Part shown: in pieces, positions 1,443 through 64,000 of the stretch | How the letters are laid out: each line of letters begins with the position of its first letter | Position numbering within the stretch: position 1 is the first letter of the stretch | Source of the DNA: an uncultured Bacilli bacterium | GTDB lineage: Bacteria; Bacillota_I; Bacilli_A; RF39; UBA660 | Assembly: GCA_947624045.1 (NCBI GenBank) | Contig: CANQIL010000002.1 | Location: 2,055 to 66,054, forward strand | DNA: 64,000 nucleotides | Direction: 5' to 3' | Made by a program: the position numbers and the translations under genes | The notes under the pieces: generated by a model | Told to the model about the DNA's origin: nothing | What the model saw: only the letters and a program-made list of their open reading frames with translations | Database searches by the model: none

Positions 1443-3494
1443 ATGAAGAAATATAAAAGTAGAAAAAAGATTGATTATGATAAAATTATTAATAAACGAT
1501 TTACGTTATTTTTAATTGTTATTTTAATTGTCTTTAGTTTAGTTTTATTTAAAATGATAGATGTAATGCTTATTAAAGAGGCAGTATATAAAGATAAATT
1601 ATCATCACTTAGTTACTCAACTACTTTAGGAAGTAGTACTCCTCGAGGTAGAATTTATGATAGAAACTATAATATTATTGTAGATAATAAATCATTAAAA
1701 ACAATTACTTATAAAAAAGAAAAAGGCACAACAACAAAAGATATGCTTAAAGTTGCCTATGAAGTTGCGCCTCACTTAGACTTAGATTTATCTAGATTAA
1801 ATGAGCAAATGAAAAGAGAGTTTTACTATGCTAAATATAAAGAAAAATGTGATAAGCTTGTTAGTAAAAAAGAAATTAATCAAGTAAATACAAGAAAAAT
1901 GACTACTAGAGATTTAGAAGAATTAAAACTAAAAAGAATTAGTACTGAAGAACTAGCTAAATTAACAGATGAAGATTTAGAAGTAGCTTATTTATATTAC
2001 TTAATGAATAAAGGTTATACTTATGAAGAAAAGACTATTAAAAGTGATGTAACAGATAAAGAATATGCTTATATTTCCGAAAATAATGCAAACTTAAAAG
2101 GTTTTAATACTAAGCTTGATTGGGAAAGAGTTTATCCTTATGGCGATACTTTTAAAGCTATTTTAGGAACAGTTTCCTCATCAACACAAGGAATTCCAGC
2201 TGAAGAAAAAGATTACTATTTAAATAAAGGTTACTTTTTAAATGATAGAGTAGGTATTAGTTATATTGAAAAGCAATATGAAGATTATTTGAAAGGTGAA
2301 AAGCCCGTTTATGAAGTAGTTAATTCTCATGAAACAAAACTAATAAAAGAGGGTAGTCGTGGTAAAGATATTGTTTTATCAATTGATATAAATTTGCAAA
2401 AAGAATTAGAAAAAGTAATTGATGAACAAATTAGAAGAGCTAAAAGTGAAGCTAATACTGATTATTTTGACCATTCAAGTGTTGTTATTGAAGATCCAAA
2501 TACCGGGGAAATTCTAGCTATGGTTTCCAGAAAATTAGTAAATGGAGAATTTATTGATAATACAACAAGTATATTAACATCTCCCATCACACCAGGCTCT
2601 GTTGTTAAAGGGGCATCTATGTTAGTAGGTTATAATACTGGTGTATTAAAAATAGGTGAATATCTTAAAGATGAATGTATTAAAGTAGCGGGTGCACCGG
2701 AAAAATGTTCTTCGGTAAAGACCCTTGGAACGATTAATGATATAACTGCTTTAGCTAAAAGTAGTAATGTTTATCAATTTAAAGTAGCTATTAGGGTAAA
2801 TGGTCAAGAATATTCAAGAGGTATGAAACTTAATCTAAATCAAAAAGCTTTTGATACTTACCGAAATATGTATCACTCTTTTGGACTAGGCGTTAAAACA
2901 GGTATTGATTTACCTTTTGAAAGTGCCGGTGTTTCCTCAAAAAAAGATGTTAATGCTGGTAACTTGTTAGACTTTGTTATGGGACAGTACGAAACATATA
3001 CTCCGTTACAAATACTTCAATATATGTCTACTATAGCTAATGGTAAAGATAGAATAGCTCTGCATCTTTTAAAAGAAGTACATAAAGCTAGTAATACTGA
3101 AGAAATAGGTGAGTTAGAGTACACTAAAGAAAAAGAAATATTAAATTCAATTGATACCAAAGAAGAATATATGAACCGAGTAAAAGAGGGATTCATTGCG
3201 GTTATGAATGCACCGGGTGGTTATGGAGTTGGCTATATTGATAGAGGCTTAAAGCCTGCTGGTAAGACAGGAACTTCTCAAAGTTTTATTGATACAAATA
3301 ATGATAATATAATTGATACCGAAACTATCACAACTACTTTTGCCGGCTATTATCCAAGTGATAATCCTAAAGTAACTATATTAGTAACATCGCCTAATTC
3401 CTCTAGGCCCAATCCTAATAATTCTTTTATGAGCCTTGTTAACTATCGTCTAACACAAGAAGTTAGTAAAGTCTATCATAATATGTATGATTAG
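1443..3494 (+). CDS. Class B penicillin-binding protein (transpeptidase, PBP2-type)
   Basis: N-terminal TM anchor, SxxK (GSVVKG), SxN (KSSNVY), KTG (AGKTGTSQ). 683 aa, full length. Confidence 0.9.
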   Translation: MKKYKSRKKIDYDKIINKRFTLFLIVILIVFSLVLFKMIDVMLIKEAVYKDKLSSLSYSTTLGSSTPRGRIYDRNYNIIVDNKSLKTITYKKEKGTTTKDMLKVAYEVAPHLDLDLSRLNEQMKREFYYAKYKEKCDKLVSKKEINQVNTRKMTTRDLEELKLKRISTEELAKLTDEDLEVAYLYYLMNKGYTYEEKTIKSDVTDKEYAYISENNANLKGFNTKLDWERVYPYGDTFKAILGTVSSSTQGIPAEEKDYYLNKGYFLNDRVGISYIEKQYEDYLKGEKPVYEVVNSHETKLIKEGSRGKDIVLSIDINLQKELEKVIDEQIRRAKSEANTDYFDHSSVVIEDPNTGEILAMVSRKLVNGEFIDNTTSILTSPITPGSVVKGASMLVGYNTGVLKIGEYLKDECIKVAGAPEKCSSVKTLGTINDITALAKSSNVYQFKVAIRVNGQEYSRGMKLNLNQKAFDTYRNMYHSFGLGVKTGIDLPFESAGVSSKKDVNAGNLLDFVMGQYETYTPLQILQYMSTIANGKDRIALHLLKEVHKASNTEEIGELEYTKEKEILNSIDTKEEYMNRVKEGFIAVMNAPGGYGVGYIDRGLKPAGKTGTSQSFIDTNNDNIIDTETITTTFAGYYPSDNPKVTILVTSPNSSRPNPNNSFMSLVNYRLTQEVSKVYHNMYD

Positions 3495-5517: not shown

Positions 5518-6228
5518 TTAAAATATAGCTAGTAAAATTGAAAATAGAGTCAGTGAAAAATTATGAAACATATGCATAAACATAGAAGTAAAAACGCTAT
5601 CGGTCTTATAATAAGCTAAAGCGAATGCTCCACCAAGAGCTCCATAAGGAACAATATATAAATAATCAACCCATGAAGTGGCACTTCCTAAAACATGAAC
5701 AAGACCAAAGATAAAAAATGATAAAAAGACAAAAACATATTTATTTTTAAAAACATTTCTTAAGGTTTTTCTAAAAACAATTTCTTCATTAAAAGGAGCA
5801 ATAATACCGGCATTAATAAGCATTATCCAAGGAAGAGAAGAAATCATCTTTTGCACAGCTTGTTCATTTGCGGCCCCACCTGTTTTAAAAAACATATTAA
5901 TCAAAACATTCGAAATAATCATAATAAAAAGTCCAACTACCCAACAATTAAAAGCAATATTTATATTATCAAAAAGCTTACTTTTAAACTTTTTAAATTC
6001 TTGAAATAATTCTTTTTTATACATAAGACTAAAAATTACTACTAAAACTAAATTGGCAAAACAATTAAGTAAAACATTAGTTGAATAAGAAATCTTTTTG
6101 ACATCTAATTTAAATAAAAATATTGGAATATACTGAAATAGATAACTTTCAAAAAAAATAATCATTACAAGTACACCCTTTAAAATATTTTTAAGTAAAT
6201 CTTTTTTATCTTCCATTAAGTAACACAT
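5518..6228 (-). CDS. CPBP-family intramembrane glutamic endopeptidase (CAAX protease/Abi type)
   Basis: Polytopic. EExxxR motif (APFNEEIVFRKTL), FGLVH and FMHMFHN His motifs. Confidence 0.75.
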   Translation of the reverse strand: MCYLMEDKKDLLKNILKGVLVMIIFFESYLFQYIPIFLFKLDVKKISYSTNVLLNCFANLVLVVIFSLMYKKELFQEFKKFKSKLFDNINIAFNCWVVGLFIMIISNVLINMFFKTGGAANEQAVQKMISSLPWIMLINAGIIAPFNEEIVFRKTLRNVFKNKYVFVFLSFFIFGLVHVLGSATSWVDYLYIVPYGALGGAFALAYYKTDSVFTSMFMHMFHNFSLTLFSILLAIF

Positions 6229-11514: not shown

Positions 11515-14469
11515 ATGTATTTAAAAGAAATTACGGCTAGTGGGTTTAAATCTTTTGCCGACAAGATAAGTATTAAATTAGACGGAAAGACTACTTGTAT
11601 TGTTGGACCTAATGGCTCAGGAAAAAGTAATATTGTTGATGCGGTTAGATGGGTCTTAGGTGAACAGTCAGTTAAATCTCTTCGTGGTGATGGCTCTATG
11701 AGTGATGTTATCTTCTCAGGAAGTAAATCGCGTAATCCTTTAAATGTAGCGAGTGTTGAACTTATCTTTGATAATTCAGACCATTACTTAAATGTTTCTT
11801 ATACCGATATTTCCATAAAAAGAAGAGTCTATCGTAGTGGTGAAAATGAATACTTTCTAAATAATGAAAAGTGTCGTTTAAAAGATATTACTAATTTATT
11901 ATTAGATTCTGGTATGGCCAAAGAGTCTTATAATATTATTTCTCAAGGTGAAGTTGAACGAATCTTATCTAATTCAGCTATAGATAGAAGAATTATTTTT
12001 GAAGAAGCATCAGGTATTTTAAAATATAAAAGAAGAAAAGAAGAAGCTTTACGAAAACTAGATAAAACTCATAATAATCTAGATAGAGTAAATGATATTA
12101 TCGCCGAGTTAGAAAGACAAATAGAGCCTTTAAAAGAGCAAAGTAGTAAAGCAATGGATTACCTAGAAAATAAAAAAGGCCTAGATAAATATGAAGTAGC
12201 CTTACTAGCTTATGATATTGAAAATTTAAACTCTACTTTAGAACAAGCTCACATAAAAAAAGAAAAACTAGATAAAGAAATTCTTAATTTACAAACTGAA
12301 ACTAATAAATATGAAACTTTTAATCTCGAGATAAATACTTCTTTAGAAAAACTAGAAAATGAAAGAAGTCTTTTAAATACTGAACTTTTGCAGTTAGTAG
12401 AAGAAGTAGAAAAAATTAATGGTGAAAAGAAGCTTTTAAAAGAAAAGAGCAAAACTACTAAGGAAGAAGATATTTTAAAAGAAGAATTACGTAGTGTTTT
12501 AGAACAAAAAGGTAGTTTAGAAAAGACGCAGATGCTCTTACAAGAAGAACTTAAAAACTCATCTAGTGAACTAGGTTCTATTACTACTAAAAAAAGTATA
12601 GTTGATGAAAATATTAAAAGTCTAACTACTAAGAAGAATATGTTAAATAGTGATTATGCTAAAATGCAAAGAGAAATTATTCTTCTTGATGAAAAAATTA
12701 GTAGTCTTCAAAGTGAAATAGAACGGGGAGGGGATATGCCTAATAGTGTATCAAAGGTTTTATCTTCTTCAAGCTTAACAGGTATTCATAATACTATTGG
12801 TAATATTTTAAAAACAACTGATGAATATGTAAAAGCTTTAGATATTGCGATTGCCTCTAATAAAAATTTTATTATCACAACTGATGAGGCATCTGCTAAA
12901 AAAGCTATTAATTATTTAAAAGATAATCATTATGGTAGAGCTACTTTTTTTCCTCTTTCTGTTATTAAAGAAAGATATGTAGATAGTAATACGTTAAGTA
13001 TTCTAAAGAATAATCAAGACTTTTTAGGCATAATGAGTGAGCTAGTTACTTATGATAAAAAGTATGAAAATATCGTTAAAAATCAACTTGGTACTGTTTT
13101 AGTTTGTAAAGACTTAGATAGCGCTACAAACATTTCTCATTCAATTGGCGCTAAATACAAAATAGTTACCCTAGATGGGGATGTTGTTAATGTAGGAGGC
13201 TCTTTAGTAGGAGGAACTTACTATAAAAGTAAAAGCGTTATTTCCTTAAGACAAGAGCTTCATCACTTAGAAGAAAAGAAAAATGTCTATCAAAATGAAG
13301 TCTTAGAAATAACTAAAGAAATTGAAGCTACAGACAAAGATATTTCTTTAAGTAATGAAAATTTATTTGCTTATGCTAAAGAAGAAGTAACCTTAAAAGA
13401 AAAATACTTATCTAAAAAGAAAGAGTTAGATGATGTTTCTTTAAAATTAGAAGAGGCTAATAAAGAATATGGGCAACTTGATTTAATAAAAAATAATTCT
13501 TTAGAAGATAAAGAAAAAGAATTAATTAATGAGTTTGCGACTAAAAGTGCTGAAAAAGAAAAATTACAAATTAGACTAGAAGCCCTTAATAAAAAAATAG
13601 CTAACCTAAAAGATGAAGAAGAAAAAAATGAAGCAGATAATAGACTAAAACAAGCTAATTTGCGTAGTCTAGAAAAAGAAAATAAAGATATTGAAATAGA
13701 GATTAACAGAATAGATGTAAAATTAGATAATATGTTAAATGAATTAAATACCACTTATGAAATATCTTTTGATAAAGCTAAAAATGATTATAAGCTAGAT
13801 ATTGAAGTAGAAGAAGCTAGAGAAAAAGTTACTATTTATAAGAATAATATTAAAAAAATTGGCATGGTTAATTTAGATGCTATTGAAGAATATAAAATGG
13901 TTAATACGAGATATGTCTTTTTAACTAATCAAAAAGAAGATTTATTAAAAGCCGAAGATACTTTGTTAGAAATAATGAATGAGATGGACGGAGTTATGAA
14001 AGAGGAATTTTATAATACGTTCATGGCTATAAAAGATGAATTTAAAAAAGTCTTTAAAGAATTGTTTAGAGGGGGTCAAGCTGATTTAAAGCTTACTAAT
14101 GAAGATGACTTACTGACAACTGGTGTTGATATAGTCGCATCCCCTCCAGGTAAAAAGCTAACGACCATTTCACTATTATCAGGTGGTGAGAAAACTTTAA
14201 CGGCTATTTCATTATTGTTTGCTATTTTAAATGTTAGAAGTGTTCCATTTTGCTTATTTGATGAAGTTGAAGCTGCCTTAGATGAAGCTAATGTATCAAG
14301 ATTTGGTAAGTATTTAGAGCATTATCGTGATAAAACACAATTTTTAATTATTACGCATAAGAAGAAAACAATGGAGTATGCAAAGACTTTATATGGTATT
14401 ACTATGCAAGAGTCTGGTGTTTCTAAATTAGTAAGTGTAAAATTAGAAGACCATGCAGATGTTATTTAA
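11515..14469 (+). CDS. smc: Chromosome segregation protein SMC
   Basis: Walker A GPNGSGKSN, long coiled coils, hinge, signature LSGGEKTLTA, Walker B CLFDEVEAALD. 984 aa. Confidence 0.9.
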   Translation: MYLKEITASGFKSFADKISIKLDGKTTCIVGPNGSGKSNIVDAVRWVLGEQSVKSLRGDGSMSDVIFSGSKSRNPLNVASVELIFDNSDHYLNVSYTDISIKRRVYRSGENEYFLNNEKCRLKDITNLLLDSGMAKESYNIISQGEVERILSNSAIDRRIIFEEASGILKYKRRKEEALRKLDKTHNNLDRVNDIIAELERQIEPLKEQSSKAMDYLENKKGLDKYEVALLAYDIENLNSTLEQAHIKKEKLDKEILNLQTETNKYETFNLEINTSLEKLENERSLLNTELLQLVEEVEKINGEKKLLKEKSKTTKEEDILKEELRSVLEQKGSLEKTQMLLQEELKNSSSELGSITTKKSIVDENIKSLTTKKNMLNSDYAKMQREIILLDEKISSLQSEIERGGDMPNSVSKVLSSSSLTGIHNTIGNILKTTDEYVKALDIAIASNKNFIITTDEASAKKAINYLKDNHYGRATFFPLSVIKERYVDSNTLSILKNNQDFLGIMSELVTYDKKYENIVKNQLGTVLVCKDLDSATNISHSIGAKYKIVTLDGDVVNVGGSLVGGTYYKSKSVISLRQELHHLEEKKNVYQNEVLEITKEIEATDKDISLSNENLFAYAKEEVTLKEKYLSKKKELDDVSLKLEEANKEYGQLDLIKNNSLEDKEKELINEFATKSAEKEKLQIRLEALNKKIANLKDEEEKNEADNRLKQANLRSLEKENKDIEIEINRIDVKLDNMLNELNTTYEISFDKAKNDYKLDIEVEEAREKVTIYKNNIKKIGMVNLDAIEEYKMVNTRYVFLTNQKEDLLKAEDTLLEIMNEMDGVMKEEFYNTFMAIKDEFKKVFKELFRGGQADLKLTNEDDLLTTGVDIVASPPGKKLTTISLLSGGEKTLTAISLLFAILNVRSVPFCLFDEVEAALDEANVSRFGKYLEHYRDKTQFLIITHKKKTMEYAKTLYGITMQESGVSKLVSVKLEDHADVI

Positions 14470-54469: not shown

Positions 54470-55627
54470 TTACTCACTAAATAAAATCTTTTCACTATCA
54501 TATTCTTTAATAATATAGGCTAAGACTAAACTAACAAATACTATAATTGATATAGTCATTAGAACAATATGTAAAACATTAATATTACCACTATTTACAT
54601 CATTAAATATTTGAATATGATTGATAAAAGGGATTAAAGCAATCAAGTTAGTTGTTTTTAAATTAGCCATAAAAGAAATCATTCCCGGGAAGAAGCAAAT
54701 AAAACTAAGCGGTGTCAAAGCACTTTGGGCTTCTTTAAATGTCTTAGCTTTAGAAGCAACGGCAATACATAAGCCACTTATTAAGAAAGAGTATAAAAGT
54801 ATAATTAAAAGCGTTATTAAAATAGTTGTAGTATTAGGTAAAATATTTATCTCTTCATAAATAGAAAACCACTTATTGGAATAGAATAGGGCAACAAGAG
54901 CAAGTATGAATCCTAAAAAGCCTGTAATTATCGAAGTAATAGTTACACTTAAGAATTTACCAATAATTATATCCTTACTCTTAATAGGAAAACTCAAAAG
55001 TGTCTCCAACGTACCTCTTTCTTTTTCACCCGCCGTAGCATCTGTTGCTGGATAAGTTGCTGATACTGTTATGGCCATAATAACAAACAGAAAAGCATAA
55101 CTCGTTGTATAATTAACATAAAAATTCTTTTCTTTTTCATTTATTGTTTTATAAGAAATATTAATAATATCAAAAACTTCATCACTATTAACATTATTTT
55201 TTTTCAAATAATCATCTTGTAAATATTTTTTATAATCATTTAAAAACTTTTCAGCTAAATAAACTGTTTGCGAACTTTTTTCATTATTTTCATCATAATT
55301 TATTTCATAATTATTACCATTCTTAGTAATATATAAATCAATTTTTTCTTCTTCATAAAGTTTTTTTATCTCTTTTTCACTACCAACTTTATAATCAAGA
55401 TTATAATATTTTGCCAAACTCTCCTCAATAAAACCAAATTCATAAGTAAAGCCCATTTTATTAAAATCATCTAAGCTTGTATTAACTTCCATATTAAATA
55501 AAGCTGATATGCCAATAATTAGAAAAGGTATTAAAAAGGGTAGCAGTAACATCATAGCTAAAGATTTTTTATCACGAAAAACTTCTCTTAATTCTTTTTT
55601 TAATATAAGTCCTACTTTATTTTTCAT
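54470..55627 (-). CDS. ABC-2 type transporter permease (NatB-like)
   Basis: N-terminal TM, large extracytoplasmic loop, 5 C-terminal TM segments. Overlaps the ATPase gene. Confidence 0.7.
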   Translation of the reverse strand: MKNKVGLILKKELREVFRDKKSLAMMLLLPFLIPFLIIGISALFNMEVNTSLDDFNKMGFTYEFGFIEESLAKYYNLDYKVGSEKEIKKLYEEEKIDLYITKNGNNYEINYDENNEKSSQTVYLAEKFLNDYKKYLQDDYLKKNNVNSDEVFDIINISYKTINEKEKNFYVNYTTSYAFLFVIMAITVSATYPATDATAGEKERGTLETLLSFPIKSKDIIIGKFLSVTITSIITGFLGFILALVALFYSNKWFSIYEEINILPNTTTILITLLIILLYSFLISGLCIAVASKAKTFKEAQSALTPLSFICFFPGMISFMANLKTTNLIALIPFINHIQIFNDVNSGNINVLHIVLMTISIIVFVSLVLAYIIKEYDSEKILFSE

Positions 55628-56372
55628 CGTTTCCTCCTATAATTTTAAAAAAGCTATCTCTTAGATTAGTTGTTTTTGTTTTCTTCTTTATCTCATTAGG
55701 AGTACCACTCATAATTATTTTTCCCTCATTTATTAAATAAACTCTATCACAAATGTTTTCAGCTTCTTCCATATAATGTGTTGAGTAAAGAATCGTTTTT
55801 TTCTTCTCTTTTTCTTTTTTTATAAAGTCTAAAATTATCTGACTAGAAATTATATCAAGACCACTAGTTGCTTCATCTAATATATAATACTTGGGGTCAT
55901 GAACTAAGCATCTAGCTAAATTAACACGCTGCGTCTGACCAGTTGATAATTTAGCTATTTTATTATATAAAAAATCATCCATCTTAAGAATTTTACTAAT
56001 CTCTTTAATTCTTGCTTCTATTTTTTCTTTAGGATACTCATAAAATAAAAGGCACATCTTCATTAATTCATAAGGTGAAATACTTTGATAAATCTTGGTA
56101 TTACCTGAAAGGTAAGCAATCTTTTTCTTAATATTTATTTCATCTTGTAAAAATGTTACATCATCATAATAAACTTCTCCACTAGTTGCCTCCATAATAC
56201 CACCAATCATTCTAAGTAGAGTAGTCTTACCAGCTCCATTAGGACCTAAAATACCAATTATTTCTCCATCTTTAGCTTCAAGTGATATATCGTTAACAGC
56301 GAAAAATTTCGTCTTTTTCTTTTTCTTAGTAGTTCTTTCAAATTGCTTTTTTAAATTTTTAACAGTAATCAT
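55617..56372 (-). CDS. ABC transporter ATP-binding protein (NatA-like)
   Basis: Walker A GPNGAGKTT, signature LSTGQTQR, Walker B YILDEATSGLD. Confidence 0.92.
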   Translation of the reverse strand: MITVKNLKKQFERTTKKKKKTKFFAVNDISLEAKDGEIIGILGPNGAGKTTLLRMIGGIMEATSGEVYYDDVTFLQDEINIKKKIAYLSGNTKIYQSISPYELMKMCLLFYEYPKEKIEARIKEISKILKMDDFLYNKIAKLSTGQTQRVNLARCLVHDPKYYILDEATSGLDIISSQIILDFIKKEKEKKKTILYSTHYMEEAENICDRVYLINEGKIIMSGTPNEIKKKTKTTNLRDSFFKIIGGNDEK

Positions 56373-56430
56373 AAAATCAATCCTTTACTAAAAGATAAAT
56401 CTATTATATCATAGATTTAGGAGGTTAAAA

Positions 56431-56778
56431 ATGATTATTATTGAATATCCAAAATGTTCTACTTGTAAAAAGGCTGTAGCATTTCTAAAGAAACATAATT
56501 TCGTCTTTGAAACTAGAAATATAAAAGAAAATACTCCATCAAAAGATGAGTTACAAAAAATTATTTTACTAAGTAATTTAGATATTGATAAGTTTTTTAA
56601 TACTAGTGGCCTTGTCTATAGAGAACTTAACTTAAAAGAAAAACTAAAAGATATGTCTTTTGATGAAAAACTAACTCTTTTAAGTAGTAAAGGTATGCTT
56701 ATTAAAAGACCACTTTTAGTTACTGATGACTTTGCCTTAGTTGGCTTTAAAGAAAAAGAATGGGAGGATAGATTATGA
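56431..56778 (+). CDS. ArsC/Spx-superfamily thioredoxin-fold protein
   Basis: N-terminal IIEYPKCSTCKKA..FLKKH...FETRNI pattern. 115 aa. Confidence 0.75.
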   Translation: MIIIEYPKCSTCKKAVAFLKKHNFVFETRNIKENTPSKDELQKIILLSNLDIDKFFNTSGLVYRELNLKEKLKDMSFDEKLTLLSSKGMLIKRPLLVTDDFALVGFKEKEWEDRL

Positions 56779-57137
56779 GAGAATTAAAATTAAAAAGATG
56801 CCTAAAATGTAATAATTTAGTTGAAGATACTTTAAATAAGGAAATTATTTGTTGTGGGGAAGTAATGCAAAATGTTATTCCAAATGAAAATGATGCCAGT
56901 AAAGAAAAACATCTTCCTAATTATGAAGTAGTAGGTGATAAGCTTATTGTTAGTGTTAATCACGTAATGGAAGAAGAGCACTTTATAGAGTGGCTTATGG
57001 TTAAAGGAAAAAATATAACAATAAAGAAAGAATTTACTCCTGATGATAAACCTATCTTAGAAGTTCCTTATGAAAAGGATGTTTTTCTTTATAGTTATTG
57101 TAATAAGCATGGTTTATGGATGAAGAAAGTTTCTTAG
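56775..57137 (+). CDS. Desulfoferrodoxin-type superoxide reductase
   Basis: Desulforedoxin-like CxxC...CC (CLKC..CCGE). Centre II ligands: KEKHLP, EEEHFIEW, CNKHGLW. Confidence 0.8.
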   Translation: MRELKLKRCLKCNNLVEDTLNKEIICCGEVMQNVIPNENDASKEKHLPNYEVVGDKLIVSVNHVMEEEHFIEWLMVKGKNITIKKEFTPDDKPILEVPYEKDVFLYSYCNKHGLWMKKVS

Positions 57138-57424
57138 AAAAAGCACTTGTCTATTCATTATAATGAGGACAGGCGCTATTTGTTTTTACCTAGAAAAAAC
57201 TAAAAAGATGACAAAAAATAAGAGGTTAAAAATGAAAACTATAGAAAAAATTTACAATACTGTGATGATACTTATAATGATTTTAAGAAGAATCTAGATT
57301 CTAATGAATTAATGCAAAACTTAAATGATAGACAAGTAATTGTTACTATAGAAGATGATGATGTTATAATAATTCTAATAATATTAAAAGACTAAGTATT
57401 TATAGATTATGGAGGGTTTGTTTT

Positions 57425-58381
57425 ATGTTAATTAGTGAATTAAAAAGTGAAATTAAAAAATATAAAAAAGAAGAATTAGAAAAAATAATTGTTGAATTAT
57501 ATAAGAGAATTCCTAAATCAAAAAAAGAAGATTATGATATTGATTATTTTATTAAAAATATTGATAGTAAAAAAGTAGAAAAAAAAGAGGTGAATTTTGA
57601 AACTTTAACTAAGGAAATATCTTATTTTTTAGGATGCGTTGATAATGGTTTATATCGCGTTCCTAATAGAATAATTTCAAAAAAGGAACGTAGTACTTGG
57701 CGTTTTAAAGTAAAAAGATATTATAAAGAATTAATTAAAGTTTTACCAGATTCTGAAAATGGTGGTATGGCAACATTTTTATTAATAGAATTATTTAAAA
57801 GATTAAGTACTGGCTCTAATACCTTATTATTTGTTAATTGGGATACATTTAAAGCATTAGGAGTATCTCAATATAATTATTATGATATTATTATGAAAAG
57901 AATTTTATATAATGGTTATACAAAGGATGCTTTAAAAAATTGTATTGATCTTTTGAATGTAAAAAAAGATCCAGATGAACTATCTTATAGTATGTTTGAA
58001 GCTTTATTTGATAATTTAAAGACTTCTAGTACTAAAGAAGAAGCATTAGAATTATTAAATGACAAAATTATAGAATTAAAAAAGGATTTGAAAAATGCCA
58101 AGGACTTTGAGAAATCATTTGCTATAAGTGAATTATTAAATAATTATGTTGAATTAGTTTTTAACATATATATTAGTTTACATGAAAATGAAAAAGCAAT
58201 AGCATTTTTTCAGAATAATTATAATGAAAGAGATAATGAAGTTAAAGAATATGTATTGCTATGTAATCTAGAAGATTTGAATTTAATAGATGAATGGATT
58301 AAAGAGTATGAAGCTAAGCAAAGCAAAATAAATTTTAGAGATTCCCTAAAGAGTAAATATGAAAACTTTAAACATCACTAA
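57425..58381 (+). CDS. Hypothetical protein (N-terminus reminiscent of DUF6155)
   Basis: 318-aa ORF with RBS GGAGGG. SELKSEIKKYKKEELEKIIVELYKRIPKSKKEDY pattern. Weak assignment. Confidence 0.4.
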   Translation: MLISELKSEIKKYKKEELEKIIVELYKRIPKSKKEDYDIDYFIKNIDSKKVEKKEVNFETLTKEISYFLGCVDNGLYRVPNRIISKKERSTWRFKVKRYYKELIKVLPDSENGGMATFLLIELFKRLSTGSNTLLFVNWDTFKALGVSQYNYYDIIMKRILYNGYTKDALKNCIDLLNVKKDPDELSYSMFEALFDNLKTSSTKEEALELLNDKIIELKKDLKNAKDFEKSFAISELLNNYVELVFNIYISLHENEKAIAFFQNNYNERDNEVKEYVLLCNLEDLNLIDEWIKEYEAKQSKINFRDSLKSKYENFKHH

Positions 58382-58626
58382 ATGATAATAACGTTATAGT
58401 TTAAACAATGACAATTTTTGAAAAAACATTGTTAATTCAAAATAAGTAAGTACGATATTGGAAAGAAAAAGGATATGGTGATTAAACATTTTTATGAGTA
58501 TTACAAAACCTTTGTAACCCAGGATTTGTTTAACTGGGATAAAAATTAGGTAAAAACTCTTTATTATCATTTAAAAACCTAGCATTTTCTAGTCTTTTTA
58601 TCATAATTTTTAATAGAGGTGATTTT

Positions 58627-59721
58627 TTGTTTCTAAAGAAAATTGATGAAAGAATAAAAATGCTCTTTTTAATAATCTTAGTATTTTTAGGTTTAATAAT
58701 AGGAAAAGTATTTTATATACAAGTATTTGATTATAAAAAATTAAATAAATTTGCTAAAGACTTATGGAGTAGAGATTTACCTATAGAAGCTGATAGGGGT
58801 AAGATTTTAGATAGAAATGGTAATGTATTAGCTGATAATTTAACGACTACTTCACTTGTTTTAATACCCAATCAAATAAAAAATAAAGAAGAAGTATGTA
58901 ATAATTTAGCCCAAATTTTAAATGTTTCTTATGATGAGATGAAAAAACACGTTTATAAAAAAACTTCTATTGAAAGAGTTCACCCTGAGGGTAGAAGGTT
59001 ACCTTATGAAACAGCTGAAAAAATAGCTGCTTTAAATTATGAAGGGGTTTATTTAGTAAAAGAAGCTAAAAGATATTATCCTTATGGAAATTTACTTTCC
59101 CATAGTTTAGGTTATGTTGGTATTGATAATCAAGGCTTATCCGGATTAGAATTACAATATGATAAGTATTTATCAGGTAAGAGTGGGGCAATTAAGTACT
59201 TTTCTGATTCAAAAGGAAATAAGCTAAATTTATCAGATGTTTATGTAAAACCTCAATCAGGTATGAATTTAACTTTAACAATAGATATAAATATTCAAAA
59301 ATCTTTAGAAAGAGAACTTACTAACGTTATGGATATGTTTGAGGCAGAAAATGCTCTTGCTATTGTGATGGACCCTAATACAGGTGAAATACTAGGTATG
59401 GCTTCTAGGCCTGATTATGACCCTAATAATTATAAAAATTATACTCAAGAAGTTTTAAGTAGAAACTTACCAATTTGGAAGTCTTATGAACCAGGTAGTA
59501 CTTTTAAAGTTGTCACAATGGCAACAGCTATTGAAGAGGGTGTAGTTGATTTAGAAAAAGACCATTTTTATGACTCGGGCAAAGTTAATGTCGACGGTAG
59601 TGTTTTACGTTGTTGGAAAGCCGGGGGACATGGCGACCAGACATTCCTCCAAGTACTGCAGAATTCTTGTAATCTTGGTGTCGATACAGCAACACATATC
59701 AATTTGAGGAAAACCTTATAA
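58627..59721 (+). pseudogene. 5' portion of a SpoVD/FtsI-type class B PBP gene, truncated after the SxN motif
   Basis: TTG start after AGAGGTGA. TM anchor, AKDLWSRDLPIEADRGKILDRNGNVLA, SRPDYDPNNY, SxxK (GSTFK), CWKAGGHGDQTFLQVLQNSCN, then LGVDTATHINLRKTL*. No KTG box or C-terminal domains. Confidence 0.7.
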
Positions 59722-59783
59722 ATAATAAGAATAGTCTTACCCAAATTGATGTTTGTTCTACCTTTAATCTAATCTATAATAAT

Positions 59784-60602
59784 GTGTCATATACGAATAA
59801 TGAAGATATTAAAATAGATAATTCAATGATAAAAATTACTTCTAATAAAAAAGATAACATAAAAAAAATTAACAGTAAGCTATACAATGCTAATACAAAT
59901 ACTTATGAAAATATAATATATAACAAACAGCAAGTTGCTATTGATTTATTAAATAAATTAGATTTTTATATAATGGCTATCAGTAAAAATATTGTCAGAA
60001 ATTATCTTGTAAAAAATATTGTTTATAAGTTAAATAATAGAATTGTTGAAGTACAAGTTAAACAAAATAACTTATTAGTATCTTTTCATAAAGTTGCTAA
60101 AAATTTTGACACTGAAAACAAATTAATAAATCGTAAAGGATATGAAAATAATAGTATATGTTATTCACTAATTGTTGAAGATGATAATAGTTTTAATTAC
60201 GCTATTAGAACTATTGAAAATATTTATAACTTCTTTACTGCCCCAAAAGAAAGTTTAAGTGATAAATTGTTTAATGAATTAAAGTTTAAAATTAAGACTT
60301 TAAATATTTCTATAAGTGAGCATAAAACTAACAAAGGCTTAATGTTTAAGGGAAAAAGAAATTTTGTACTATTATCAAAAACAAATTATGGTGTTTATGT
60401 TAGATTATTAAATGTTAGTAATTCTAATAATGAATTGCATATTGTTACTAGAAAAAACTATGAGCCATTATGTTTATCTTATAAAGTTAGAAAAAATGAA
60501 GATATTGATATTCTACTCCCATATATTAAAGAAAGTTATGAGAAATGTAATATAAATCCTATTGATTTAAAATATGAATTTTATAAATTATATAACAAAT
60601 AA
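59784..60602 (+). CDS. Protein with two DUF5655-like repeats
   Basis: Two copies of the pattern ..helix..(I/M)(V/F)(Y/F)K..(R/N)(I/F)(V/L)..(Q/L).. ending ..LLPYIKESYEK. Start uncertain (GTG 59784 or ATG 59826), with no clear RBS. Confidence 0.45.
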   Translation: MSYTNNEDIKIDNSMIKITSNKKDNIKKINSKLYNANTNTYENIIYNKQQVAIDLLNKLDFYIMAISKNIVRNYLVKNIVYKLNNRIVEVQVKQNNLLVSFHKVAKNFDTENKLINRKGYENNSICYSLIVEDDNSFNYAIRTIENIYNFFTAPKESLSDKLFNELKFKIKTLNISISEHKTNKGLMFKGKRNFVLLSKTNYGVYVRLLNVSNSNNELHIVTRKNYEPLCLSYKVRKNEDIDILLPYIKESYEKCNINPIDLKYEFYKLYNK

Positions 60603-60628
60603 CAAGCACATTTTACTGCTTGTTTTTT
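60602..60628 (+). terminator. Rho-independent terminator
   Basis: ACAAGCA ... TGCTTGT followed by T5. Confidence 0.6.
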
Positions 60629-60729
60629 ATACAAATGTTAATAAAATCGTAGGAAAGTTGACGCTTTCGTGATATAATTTTAATACAAATTAAAATCTAA
60701 ATTTGTCTTGATAAAACTGAGGTGATTAG

Positions 60730-63090
60730 ATGAAAAGTATATTCATATTAAATAACTATGGAATTTCAATGACAGTATTAAAAAAAATTTATGAACTTGG
60801 AATTACATATCTCGATTTAGAATTCTTTGGTGAAAGCATATTAAAGGAAAAAGGTATTAGCACTTCACAAAGGCAAGAGATAATAAAAGCTTTTTGGAAA
60901 TCAAAAAATGATCAATATGCATATACAAATATCATAAATGAGTTACAATTCTACTACATTAAAAGAAATGTTTTAATGATGATGAATGATAGAAAAGTTG
61001 TATTAAATGATATATCTGCATTAAATGAAGATGAGTTTTGTGTTAAATATGCAATAAATCCAAAATATTATCAAGGAATTAAAACTAGCTATGAAATGTT
61101 AAAAAATAATAATTTTCATATTCCAAAAAAAGATGATTATTCTGATTACTTGTTAAAAGCTATTAGCTCATTAGACGATGATAAAGATATAGAAATGTCA
61201 AAAATTTTATGTTACTTATTAAATACAACTTATCCAATTTCTCATTTTTATACAGACATAAGCAAACTAGAAAGAGAAAATAAAATAAAAGTTATTGATG
61301 AAAAAATTTCTTTGATTTTTCCAAGTATATTGTTACGAATTCAAGATTTAAATGAGCAACATAAAAATATTCTTTTGGAAAGACTGAGTGGCCAAACATT
61401 AAAGCAAGTTGGCGATAAGTATAATTTAACAAGAGAAAGAATTAGACAAATTATTGAGAAAGAATATATGAAAATAGAAAAAGTTGCAGAAGACAAATAT
61501 AAGCATATTTATGAGAAATATGATTTATCTGAGAATGAATTTCTTACTATCTTTAACGAAAAAAAATCTACTTACTATTACTTGTTTGATAAATATCAAA
61601 AAGGAAAATTAAACTTTGTAGAATTAGAAAAAGAATATTTCAATAATGAAGATATATTAAAAAGAATAAAATCGTTAAAAAAAGAAATATATATAGATAA
61701 TATGTATATTATTGGTGATAGAGCTAATGTAACAAAGTATTATTTAAAATATAAATGCAATAATGAAATTAAAGTAAAAGATTTATTCTATCGCATAAAT
61801 GATTTCATTATAAATGATTTATCAAATTATAAAATAGATATTTATGAATCTATACATAATTTAGAGGGATTTTTAGAAAGACAAAGTTGGTGCATTTCTG
61901 GAAATAAATATAATATACGTTACTATGAAATGGAATTACTATCGGAAAATGATTTGATTAACTTAAAGGAAATGCTTAATGTAGAATATGGATTATATAG
62001 TTCACTATATTTTTATGAGAACAATAAAGACTTAATGGAAGAATTGAATATTAAAAATGAACAAGAATTACACAATTTACTAAGAAATTTGATTTTTTTA
62101 GATAATGTAACTTATTTAAGAATGCCAAACATTTTAATTGGTTACAAAAATAGAAAGGATTTTTTCGAAGACAAAATGACAGAGTTAGCACCATTATCAG
62201 TTTCTGATTTTTTAAAAATTTTAAGAAACAATTATGGACATCGTGAAGATACAATGGCATCTTATTTGGCATTAGAATTTAAAGAATATATAACTGGTGA
62301 TAAGATTATTGCCAATGTAGTTGAATTACCAACTGATTATTTAGACAATATAATTTCAAAGTTAAATAAAAACGTGTACTCTATAAATGAATTTAGAGAA
62401 ATTTTAAATAATTTTAATTTATCTTCTAATAACACTCAACAAATACTTAATAATTTAAATTTAAGCAAACTTAATTATAAAATCATAGGAAATTATATAA
62501 TAAAAAATAATTATAATAACTTAGAAGAAGCATTTTATAATGCAATTATAAGAGGAGAAATATCTTGTTCAAATTTAAGAATGAGTAGTACAACCTACGC
62601 AATTATTTCTAAGTTGGAAAAAAATTATAAAATTATTGAAATAGATAAAAAGTATTATGCTTTTGAAAGACTTTATAATTTAGGATTAACTAAAAATGAA
62701 ATTTTTGATTTTATTAATGTTATAAAAGAAACGTTTTCTATAAATAATTATTACATCACACCAACATTGATTAGAGCAAAAATATCTCATAGCCTATTGC
62801 AAAATAAAATGATTAACGACTCTATAATTTGCTCATTAATAAAATTAATAGATGGTTTTAGAAAAATTTCTTGGCATAACAACATTATATTTTGTTACTG
62901 TCCTAAAGGAAATGCATCTAGAAAAACATTTTTACTAAGCATTTTAGAAGAAAACAAAGACATAAAACTGTCTGAAGTGCAAAATATATTAAAAGAAAAA
63001 TACGGTGTAATTTTAAATGAAGAACAAATAAGATATATTGGTTATGATATAGGGGTATTATTCAATAATGATGATGTTAATCATTATTGA
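60730..63090 (+). CDS. 786-aa protein of unknown function with a sigma-70 region-4-like HTH
   Basis: RBS GAGGTGA. ILLERLSGQTLKQVGDKYNLTRERIRQIIEKE (aa ~213-245) matches the sigma region 4 pattern. No NTPase or nuclease motif seen. Confidence 0.5.
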   Translation: MKSIFILNNYGISMTVLKKIYELGITYLDLEFFGESILKEKGISTSQRQEIIKAFWKSKNDQYAYTNIINELQFYYIKRNVLMMMNDRKVVLNDISALNEDEFCVKYAINPKYYQGIKTSYEMLKNNNFHIPKKDDYSDYLLKAISSLDDDKDIEMSKILCYLLNTTYPISHFYTDISKLERENKIKVIDEKISLIFPSILLRIQDLNEQHKNILLERLSGQTLKQVGDKYNLTRERIRQIIEKEYMKIEKVAEDKYKHIYEKYDLSENEFLTIFNEKKSTYYYLFDKYQKGKLNFVELEKEYFNNEDILKRIKSLKKEIYIDNMYIIGDRANVTKYYLKYKCNNEIKVKDLFYRINDFIINDLSNYKIDIYESIHNLEGFLERQSWCISGNKYNIRYYEMELLSENDLINLKEMLNVEYGLYSSLYFYENNKDLMEELNIKNEQELHNLLRNLIFLDNVTYLRMPNILIGYKNRKDFFEDKMTELAPLSVSDFLKILRNNYGHREDTMASYLALEFKEYITGDKIIANVVELPTDYLDNIISKLNKNVYSINEFREILNNFNLSSNNTQQILNNLNLSKLNYKIIGNYIIKNNYNNLEEAFYNAIIRGEISCSNLRMSSTTYAIISKLEKNYKIIEIDKKYYAFERLYNLGLTKNEIFDFINVIKETFSINNYYITPTLIRAKISHSLLQNKMINDSIICSLIKLIDGFRKISWHNNIIFCYCPKGNASRKTFLLSILEENKDIKLSEVQNILKEKYGVILNEEQIRYIGYDIGVLFNNDDVNHY

Positions 63091-63128
63091 TATAATTATA
63101 GAAAAATATTTTCTAGGAGGTAATTTTT

Positions 63129-64000
63129 ATGGAAACAACTAATTTATCAAAAATAAAAAGAGAAAAAATGTTACAAACTATTAAAAATATTAAGAATAGT
63201 ATTAATGATGAAGATGTTTTAAATGACTTATCATTGATAGAATATGAACTTACAAAAAAGAAATATGGTTTAGTATGGGAAGAACACGAAGAAAAAGTTG
63301 ACGTAGAATTAAAAACTAAGATACCAACTTTTGAGGAAATAAAAGAAAAAGAAATAATATCAAATAAAAATGACAAATTTAATTTCTTGTTAGAGGGCGA
63401 TAATTTACACAGTTTATATCTTCTACAAAAAACACATAATGAAAGAGTTGATGTTATATATATAGATCCACCCTATAATACAAAAAGCTCTGATTTTATT
63501 TATGATGATAAAATAGTTAATTCAGAAGATACATTCAAACATAGCAAATGGTTATCTTTTATGGGTGTGCGGTTAAGATTAGCAAGAAATCTTTTATCAA
63601 ACAATGGAGTTATATTTATAAGTATAGATGAAAATGAATTTGCACAACTTAAATTATTGTGTGATGAAATATTTGGAGAACAAAATTTTATAGATTGCAT
63701 TATTTGGAATAAGAGAGTCCCTAAAAATGATAAGGGAATTGGTAACATCCACGAATATATTTTATTATATGCCAAAAGGGCTGATTATAAATACAAATTT
63801 TTAATGCCAAAAGATGGTATGAGTGATATTGAAAAATTATTAAATGAGTTTAAAAAGAAAAAAAAGTCTATTCAAGAATCAGAAATTGAATTAAAAAAAT
63901 TGTATAGAAAAAATAAGTATGACAGAGCAATCACCCTTTACAATAATTTAGATGACAATTATAACATTTGGGGAAAAATAAATCTTAGTTGGCCCAATGG
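63129..64000 (+). CDS. mod: Type III restriction-modification methyltransferase (Mod, N6-adenine, beta class), 5' partial
   Basis: RBS AGGAGG. FLLEGDNLHSLYLL, VDVIYIDPPYNT (motif IV), HSKWLSFM, NGVIFISIDENE. The frame is open to the window end, so it is absent from the ORF track. Confidence 0.8.
   Translation, partial: METTNLSKIKREKMLQTIKNIKNSINDEDVLNDLSLIEYELTKKKYGLVWEEHEEKVDVELKTKIPTFEEIKEKEIISNKNDKFNFLLEGDNLHSLYLLQKTHNERVDVIYIDPPYNTKSSDFIYDDKIVNSEDTFKHSKWLSFMGVRLRLARNLLSNNGVIFISIDENEFAQLKLLCDEIFGEQNFIDCIIWNKRVPKNDKGIGNIHEYILLYAKRADYKYKFLMPKDGMSDIEKLLNEFKKKKKSIQESEIELKKLYRKNKYDRAITLYNNLDDNYNIWGKINLSWPN

Follow-up and report, generated by a model that had tools for sequence, protein, structure and literature searches.

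The locus described here raises the question of why a gene for a penicillin-binding protein (PBP) stops in the middle of its catalytic domain. The DNA that was analysed, called the window below, is a stretch of 64,000 nucleotides (positions 2,055 to 66,054 of contig CANQIL010000002.1, assembly GCA_947624045.1) from an uncultured bacterium of the order RF39, and the gene in question is an open reading frame (ORF) at 58627-59721 on the plus strand. An earlier note on this DNA had suggested that a spoVD-type gene is split there by an inserted element. Our analysis leads to the same reading in a more precise form: spoVD would be split at its Asn349 codon by an element of the large serine recombinase (LSR) class, to which we give a probability of about 0.95.

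The ORF has a TTG start and encodes 364 residues, corresponding to spoVD codons 1-349 followed by 15 foreign codons. The spoVD segment proper (58627..59672, +) contains codons 1-348 and the AA that opens the Asn349 codon, and includes the transmembrane anchor and the PBP dimerisation domain. In Pfam searches, PBP_dimer was found at residues 53-200 and the Transpeptidase model was matched at residues 244-352 by its positions 2-107 of 299 only. The STFK motif (59497-59508, +) and the SCN motif (59665-59673, +) are followed by an element-encoded tail, LGVDTATHINLRKTL, whose 15 codons and stop (59674..59721, +) end the truncated ORF shortly after the SxN box, as had been described; the tail recurs in at least four host lineages. 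The 3' part reported as missing could not be found either: the ORF by itself is without KTG and PASTA in Pfam, and a tblastn search with a full-length orthologue detected no copy of residues 352-633 across the window. The AT-rich DNA noticed after the break was also recovered (GC content of 0.35 at 59400-59799 and of 0.18-0.21 past 59800), and the restriction-modification-type genes placed downstream are represented by a type III methyltransferase gene from 63129.

The closest full-length relatives have 633-636 residues and carry PF03717 (PBP_dimer), PF00905 (transpeptidase) and PF03793 (PASTA), and the intact orthologue P0002 is 91.5% identical to the window ORF over residues 1-351. The NCBIfam equivalog TIGR02214, with its curated cut-off of 688 bits, was taken as the criterion for SpoVD. 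P0002 passes it with 717.7 bits, and the window ORF alone obtained 372.8 bits while covering profile positions 5-348 of 636; from this score and this coverage, the ORF was assigned to the 5' part of a spoVD orthologue. By sequence it is the front part of the equivalog and not a short family member. The earlier note had allowed for a naturally short PBP, and plenty of database proteins do share this architecture: numerous sequences of 353-367 residues from other hosts (77-92% identity) break at the identical residue, after ..LQNSCN. After SCN, however, these proteins run into unrelated element DNA, their tails being element-encoded and differing yet related to each other, whereas the orthologues of 633-636 residues have KTG and PASTA and the score of the ORF stays far from the 688-bit cut-off. 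An assembly or chimera artefact is at odds with the identical truncated ORF in several independent assemblies and with the identical junction in different samples and hosts. We give practically no credence to a short PBP or to an artefact. A second class B PBP, intact and PBP2B-like (683 residues, 1443..3494, +; Pfam, best NCBIfam match strep_PBP2B), reached just 142 bits on the spoVD model and is likely the vegetative enzyme, in which case spoVD would be dispensable for growth.

The junction could be placed at base resolution by comparing alleles. An intact allele (L090, 633 residues) and a split one (L094) occur in one species at 99.5% DNA identity, in agreement with a spoVD-type gene interrupted by an insertion. 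The unoccupied attachment site (attB) of L090 and the left junction (attL) of L094 are the same through ..TCTTGCAA (ending ..TGCAA) and diverge from the next base, and the sequences of the window and of L094 coincide from AAT onward. Although the window and L094 come from different hosts, with 83.0% identity over 58627-59674 (178 mismatches), they are 100% identical over 59675-59783 and 99.4% identical across the DUF5655 gene that follows. Compared with the sister lineage L183, the host part of the window (58627-59672) is 93.8% identical, with 65 nucleotide and 7 amino acid differences, a ratio of non-synonymous to synonymous substitution (dN/dS) of 0.034 and a dS of 0.32, while the 111 nucleotides at 59673-59783 are identical and the DUF5655 gene has 4 differences in 812 nucleotides. 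These three comparisons place the crossover core on the two adenines of the Asn349 codon (59671..59672), an AA that is common to attB, attL, attR and attP. The DNA from 59673 on is a horizontally mobile element that has recently entered several hosts at one site.

The element-derived (P') arm of attL, TCTTGGTGTCGATACAGCAACAC (59673..59695, +), mirrors the attR arm as an imperfect inverted repeat: when reverse-complemented, it agrees with the attR arm of contig L102, GTGTTGCCGTGTGAACACCAAG, at 18 of 22 positions around the AA, which sits at the centre of a CCAAG-CAAT-CTTGG dyad, and a related arm is carried by L020. The attR arm of relatives has the form ..GTGTTGC(C/T)GT..ACACC..GC-AA and makes up, with the window's attL arm AA-TCTTGGTGTCGATACAGCAACAC, an imperfect palindrome around AA. 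Long direct repeats are absent at the two junctions, which have only the 2-bp core in common; instead of the short direct repeat that had been predicted for the far junction, a 2-bp core with inverted-repeat arms was found. Such an architecture, with an identical 2-bp core and imperfect dyad arms, fits an LSR. Junctions of the attP type, in which an LSR gene is followed by a near-perfect dyad and then by a DUF5655 gene, are present in the diverged relatives L151 (GTAACACCAAGC-AA-TCTTGGTGTTAC, at 2880-2960) and L123 (similar, at 5690-5760). L123 represents a tandem array within a contig of the chromosome, because this contig also holds a second LSR gene and then the spoVD 3' part (L136). L151 was rejected as a free circular element, being without terminal overlap; a tandem array and a free form are both conceivable for it.

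A decayed copy of spoVD residues 327-367 (123 bp, 58450-58572, +; tblastn E value 8e-10) lies 55 bp upstream of the spoVD start. It has an uninterrupted attB-like sequence, ..TTTGTAACCCAGGATTTGT.., with stop codons inside. This relic was considered as a conserved second attB and rejected, since its core is conserved at 75% and its flanks at 70%.

The far end of the element was sought beyond position 64000, where the earlier note had expected a recombinase gene and a 3' PBP fragment. No LSR gene is present in the window. Contig L001, 100% identical to the window over 60547-64000, extends the element by 7.1 kb but ends, short of the far end, inside the gene for a VirD4/TraG coupling protein, of which the first 335 residues are present. 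The end of L001 can be aligned with L044 at 82% identity; in L044 the attR is about 3 kb further on, and a small ORF and the LSR gene come after the aligned stretch. From L044, an element length of about 14.5 kb was estimated. A probable copy of the 3' fragment could be located on L102 (ENA ERZ27249363 NODE_8177), that is, not on the window's own contig. L102 encodes P0241, a cluster member of the 3' fragments, and its coverage of 10.18 compares with 10.23 for L003, a contig of the same ENA sample that is 100% identical to the window's element. P0241 was also found in Logan run ERR10663777, the source run of L004. On L102, the last 66 nucleotides of an LSR gene, which are all that is seen of the recombinase of the window's own element, precede GTGTTGCCGTGTGAACACCAAGC-AA-CCCAGGTTTTGTC and spoVD codons 350-634. 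When the window sequence 58627-59670 was joined in silico to L102 from the core, a 634-residue ORF was obtained with STFK291, SCN347 and KTGT493, and this product passes TIGR02214 with 726.7 bits. L102 is the probable far end of the window's element, and we are fairly confident that the spoVD 3' half and an LSR gene are present in the same genome as the window.

Other candidates for the 3' half were rejected. The loci L006, L009 and L012 have flanking desulfoferrodoxin and ABC transporter genes that are 75-83% identical to those of the window, and L010 has a coverage of 2.4 in the window's sample, against 10.9. Close homologues of the coupling protein, taken as a route to the far end, led to other elements (L095, L100 and L101). 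The genes downstream of spoVD on L102 match no other locus.

In the relatives, the recombinase itself could be identified. In L006, the gene for a 576-residue protein, with the domains Resolvase, Recombinase and Zn_ribbon_recom, leads directly into spoVD residues 346-633, which are encoded on the same strand. The protein matches the integrase family phrog_95 of PHROGs (E value 1e-108), and in NCBIfam it comes closest to CcrB and CcrC, without reaching either cut-off. The three-domain architecture was found in L006, L020, L030 and L053. When metagenomes were scanned with the L006 LSR, an LSR gene was found directly before the spoVD 3' part at 50 of 77 loci, as it is in many species genomes. The LSRs of these metagenome loci are 64-90% identical to that of L006, in hosts with SpoVD 49-81% identical to P0002; no relatives of the LSR were detected in IMG/VR. 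Immediately upstream of the LSR gene, 15 of the 17 elements examined have a small ORF of 45-81 residues, at all three insertion sites described below, with a conserved core N-x-x-L-Y-x4-I (mostly NKELY). From its conserved synteny, this small ORF is a candidate recombination directionality factor. In L143, L147, L148 and L152, an LSR subfamily of 543 residues, about 71% identical to the L006 LSR, is encoded about 640 bp after the spoVD 5' part, on the attL side, and not before the 3' part.

The window is one of many such cases. A scan of species representatives of the clade, which is the order RF39, gave 51 loci. In about 29 of them every site is intact, and about 22 are split, including two ambiguous cases that begin exactly at a contig end. 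L035 in this clade is 'Mycoplasma sp. CAG:877', and the genus CAG-877 belongs to family CAG-611 of RF39 (PMC8035907). Three insertion sites were recognised, and each is used by a separate LSR lineage, with 41-87% identity to the L006 LSR. Site 1 coincides with STFK or follows it immediately (about residues 291-297), site 2, that of the window, is at SCN|PGF (349/350), and site 3 lies after GVSVTPIQ (about residue 414). Complete small elements are contained in single loci (L020, 2.98 kb; L037, 4.6 kb; L030, 5 kb; L053, 5.1 kb), the L020 element consisting of RelB, ParE, the small ORF and the LSR. In seven loci (L052, L054, L101, L145, L146, L150 and L161), spoVD is in three pieces owing to two LSR elements, at sites 1 and 2 or 2 and 3, and these pieces are without stop codons. 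Among the split species genomes the spoVD fragments have no in-frame stops, and a frameshift was seen only in the 5' part of L037.

Two further loci extend the picture. At 5388-7153 of L095, a SEDS gene that immediately precedes murG and divIB is interrupted by an element with the module of DUF7659, coupling protein, small ORF and a 525-residue LSR. What is left of the gene is a C-terminal fragment of 33 residues, GVTLPFLSYGGSS.., with 91% identity to the protein of the FtsW/SpoVE family in L100, so that a spoVE-like gene is a possible second target. L100 itself comes from a host that is further removed (SpoVD with 54% identity to P0002; spoVD, mraY and SEDS in this order). Its spoVD is occupied at site 2 (11551-14380), again with the module of coupling protein, small ORF and LSR. 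This element additionally contains an RHS-repeat protein and a phage Gp10_C-like gene, and its 3' fragment has 285 residues, of which the gene caller gave merely a 129-residue piece. It is about an even chance that the cortex machinery of RF39 is a hot spot for excisable, non-phage elements with defence genes, mainly in spoVD and, in at least one relative, also in the spoVE-like gene, which would all have to be cut out in the mother cell before the cortex is made, as a multi-lock rearrangement.

The upstream region of spoVD was inspected for signs of developmental control. A CATA box at 58602..58605 (+), 25 bp before the spoVD start, resembles a -10 element and is putatively of the sigma-E/sigma-K type. 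An invariant C at the first position is a hallmark of the -10 elements of Bacillus sigma-E and sigma-K. Of 34 distinct regions upstream of spoVD orthologues, 32 have CATA at -26 to -22; the motif is much less frequent before the other window genes (6 of 51) and in random 30-nucleotide windows (10.6%). A similar combination of T-run and CATA box was seen before the small ORF of 9 of 17 elements; most of these are, like that of the window, site-2 elements with a coupling protein. From the knowledge of B. subtilis, we take spoVD to be a mother-cell gene.

We propose the following course of events. An LSR would have integrated the element by recombining attP with attB at the two adenines of the Asn349 codon, inside the stretch that encodes the SxN box. 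Judging from relatives, the right end of the window's element would hold the small conserved ORF, the LSR gene and then spoVD codons 350-634. During sporulation, the LSR and the small upstream protein, acting as directionality factor, would recombine attL with attR in the mother cell; excision would release the element as a circle and restore an in-frame spoVD of 634 codons, and the forespore genome would retain the element. Elements bearing an LSR in sigK, spsM, spoVFB, spoVR and gerE do excise during sporulation (PMC4191935, PMC5595907, PMC5025042). On this precedent, and on the CATA-box promoters, we regard a programmed excision in the mother cell as the mechanism with the best support and as moderately probable.

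The insertion could also be a plain and recent knockout, the other outcome foreseen in the earlier note. DNA coding for a conserved motif would be a reliable attB, the host would be cortex-less or asporogenous, excision would occur at a low rate linked to transfer, and the loss of spores would cost little in a gut-adapted, genome-reduced lineage. The three sites all lie in stretches coding for conserved motifs (STFK, SCN and GVSVTPIQ), a single LSR lineage is spread over hosts with quite divergent SpoVD, the L037 5' part has its frameshift, and sporulation has often been lost in RF39 and related orders (PMC10868615). The elements are moreover much younger than their hosts (dS 0.007 versus 0.32), so that no selection is needed to explain intact fragments; we therefore dropped intact fragments and dN/dS as proof of function in the split state. 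The values of dN/dS are 0.03-0.09 for split and intact spoVD alike, and between L090 and L094 dN is 0 and dS 0.019, which fits constraint with small numbers. What the absence of stops and the low dN/dS do show is that spoVD matters to these lineages over time. Set against a knockout are the strong purifying selection on spoVD in lineages that now have elements (dN/dS 0.03-0.06) and the many simultaneous recent losses of one essential sporulation gene that about 22 split loci in 51 would imply. At least three LSR lineages have converged on spoVD, and a related element lies in a spoVE-like gene; mother-cell genes are the only known tolerated targets of this kind (PMC4191935). The toxin-antitoxin pair of the minimal L020 element further suggests that loss via excision is a risk. 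On balance a knockout seems unlikely, without being negligible. A reversible population switch, in which excision and re-integration in some vegetative cells would produce sporulating and non-sporulating subpopulations, is distinctly improbable. It has a precedent in yin of yabG, with mixed states that depend on growth phase (PMC10747680), and it would agree with the attP-type junctions on the metagenome contigs L151 and L123 and with the occurrence of split and intact alleles in one species. However, L123 is a chromosomal array and no free circle, L151 is not demonstrably circular, L090 and L094 differ elsewhere and are thus separate strains rather than two states of one clone, and the intact allele of the window's strain is absent from the assemblies.

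Several observations weigh against the proposed course of events and have to be set beside the above. The longest contig with the truncated ORF, of 71.7 kb, contains neither the spoVD 3' half nor the LSR gene, and the far end of the element is therefore off this contig. The link to L102 is based on sample co-occurrence, coverage and att-arm symmetry and is circumstantial; in phylogenies the distances of 5' and 3' parts are coherent, yet L102 and L006 are not separable. Searches with 20-22-mers for the attP of the window's element gave no match in IMG/VR or the metagenome collection, and the restored attB allele of the window's own strain was likewise not found among assembled sequences. Compared with known directionality-factor and phage families, the small ORF gave only a sub-threshold SHOCT match. 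The T-run and CATA are missing before the small ORF of site-1 and site-3 elements, and the CATA box is one mismatch away from a sigma-A -10 element. The youth of the elements counts here as well. Decisive sporulation genes are not found elsewhere in the window, and the other sporulation hallmarks that had been listed for it turned out weak, the SEDS protein being best classified as FtsW/RodA and a YlxY-like match falling far below the cut-off. Sporulation of RF39 is merely predicted (PMC10868615).

The part of the integrated element contained in the window is its left 4.3 kb (59673..64000, +), which runs off the window. Its first gene (59784..60602, +; Pfam PF18899) encodes the DUF5655 protein and is the conserved left-end gene of site-2 elements, with homologues at the same position in L094, L037, L027, L115, L118 and L137. 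It is followed by a gene for a cargo protein of 786 residues (60730..63090, +) with a sigma-70 region 4 helix-turn-helix (PF04545, residues 204-244). This protein is without other recognisable domain and had no match in PADLOC and PHROGs; a weak match (22 bits) to MzaA of the MZA anti-phage system was obtained. The 5' part of the methyltransferase gene of a type III restriction-modification system (63129..64000, +; N6_N4_Mtase) then reaches the window's end. The enzyme, of 588 residues in L001, corresponds to MTase_III of PADLOC (E value 2.6e-125) and is followed in L001 by REase_III and a C-protein-like helix-turn-helix protein, and beyond these by a LysR-type regulator, two small membrane proteins, DUF7659 and the VirD4/TraG-type (type IV) coupling protein. 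The two small membrane proteins (53 and 62 residues; L001 8400-8810, about window 68946-69356) are adjacent paralogues, their genes forming a tandem duplication of about 230 bp with 73% identity. Neither relaxase nor secretion-system genes were seen in these parts of the element, about 3 kb lying outside them. In the 11.4 kb seen, PHROGs matches are limited to a methylase, a helicase and regulators. By the gene content seen, the element is not a prophage but combines a recombinase and a coupling protein with defence genes. Breaks in several independent assemblies cluster at window 60547-60700: the last positions of L183 and L005 are 60595 and 60601, L001-L003 begin at 60547, and L094 diverges from the window after about 60696. 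A conserved left-end module probably meets variable cargo here, in a mosaic arrangement.

The host DNA around spoVD is itself rearranged. Between desulfoferrodoxin and spoVD, L183 (433-1881, compared with window 57187-58556) has a T4SS_pilin-like gene of 470 residues on the minus strand, for which the window has a 318-residue ORF (57425-58381) and most of the spoVD relic as counterpart; a truncated homologue of the 318-residue protein lies just upstream of the intact spoVD of L036. The spoVD locus of the window (54470-59721) is also inverted relative to its neighbours when compared with L006, L012 and L014. In those three loci, desulfoferrodoxin and the ABC transporter are downstream of the spoVD 3' end and convergent, whereas in the window and L183 they are upstream of the 5' end in the same orientation.

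Intervening elements in sporulation genes are of a known kind; gin, which resides in gerE of Bacillus cereus ATCC 10987, comes nearest to the present case (PMC5595907). This is likewise a non-prophage element inside a mother-cell gene, with a serine recombinase gene and a small accessory gene, whose precise excision restores the frame; the L020 element has the same minimal design. Unlike gin, the window's element targets spoVD, is about 14.5 kb long with a coupling protein and type III restriction-modification, was excised in silico, and resides in uncultured RF39 and not in Bacillus. In skin of sigK (B. subtilis and C. difficile) and SPbeta of spsM, an LSR and a small directionality factor rejoin the gene halves (PMC4191935, PMC5025042, PMC5499854). 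As in these systems, the recombinase gene adjoins one junction in the relatives of the window's element, and the att core is short with imperfect inverted arms. However, skin and SPbeta are prophages or remnants, whereas no phage genes were found in the window's element, and they represent one element at one site per gene, whereas spoVD has at least three sites with different LSR lineages and is sometimes in three pieces. The elements vfbin (spoVFB), vrin (spoVR) and yin (yabG) show that several mother-cell genes host excisable elements (PMC4191935, PMC10747680); unlike the window's element, none is in the cortex-synthesis machinery (SpoVD/SpoVE). LSR-driven integrative mobilizable elements and SCCmec-type (Ccr) cassettes are comparable in that the window's element combines an LSR with cargo and defence genes and a single conjugation-related gene, that of the type IV coupling protein. 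Those elements and cassettes, in contrast, insert at gene ends or in intergenic DNA with no gene to restore, and the window's insertion is in the middle of a catalytic domain. No paper joining spoVD with a serine recombinase or an intervening element was found in the literature searched. With respect to known intervening elements, the spoVD target, the several sites and elements per gene and the host lineage are new; new for the class is also that an LSR and a coupling protein occur together with cargo of the restriction-modification or toxin-antitoxin kind, phage genes being absent.

Should the excision be developmental, spoVD would have to be added to sigK, spsM, spoVFB, spoVR, gerE and yabG as a rearranged sporulation gene. 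It would then be the first such gene among those of cortex synthesis and the first in RF39, an uncultured order. The scale is unusual: with about 4 in 10 related species genomes affected, three sites in use and two elements in some genes, the clade offers a natural series for the question of why mobile elements favour mother-cell genes. The recombinases, with their base-resolved att sites, are candidate orthogonal integrases. A survey of gene presence scores spoVD as reduced or absent in RF39 (PMC10868615); split genes and contig breaks at the elements could explain part of this scarcity, and the sporulation capacity deduced from metagenome-assembled genomes may be underestimated.

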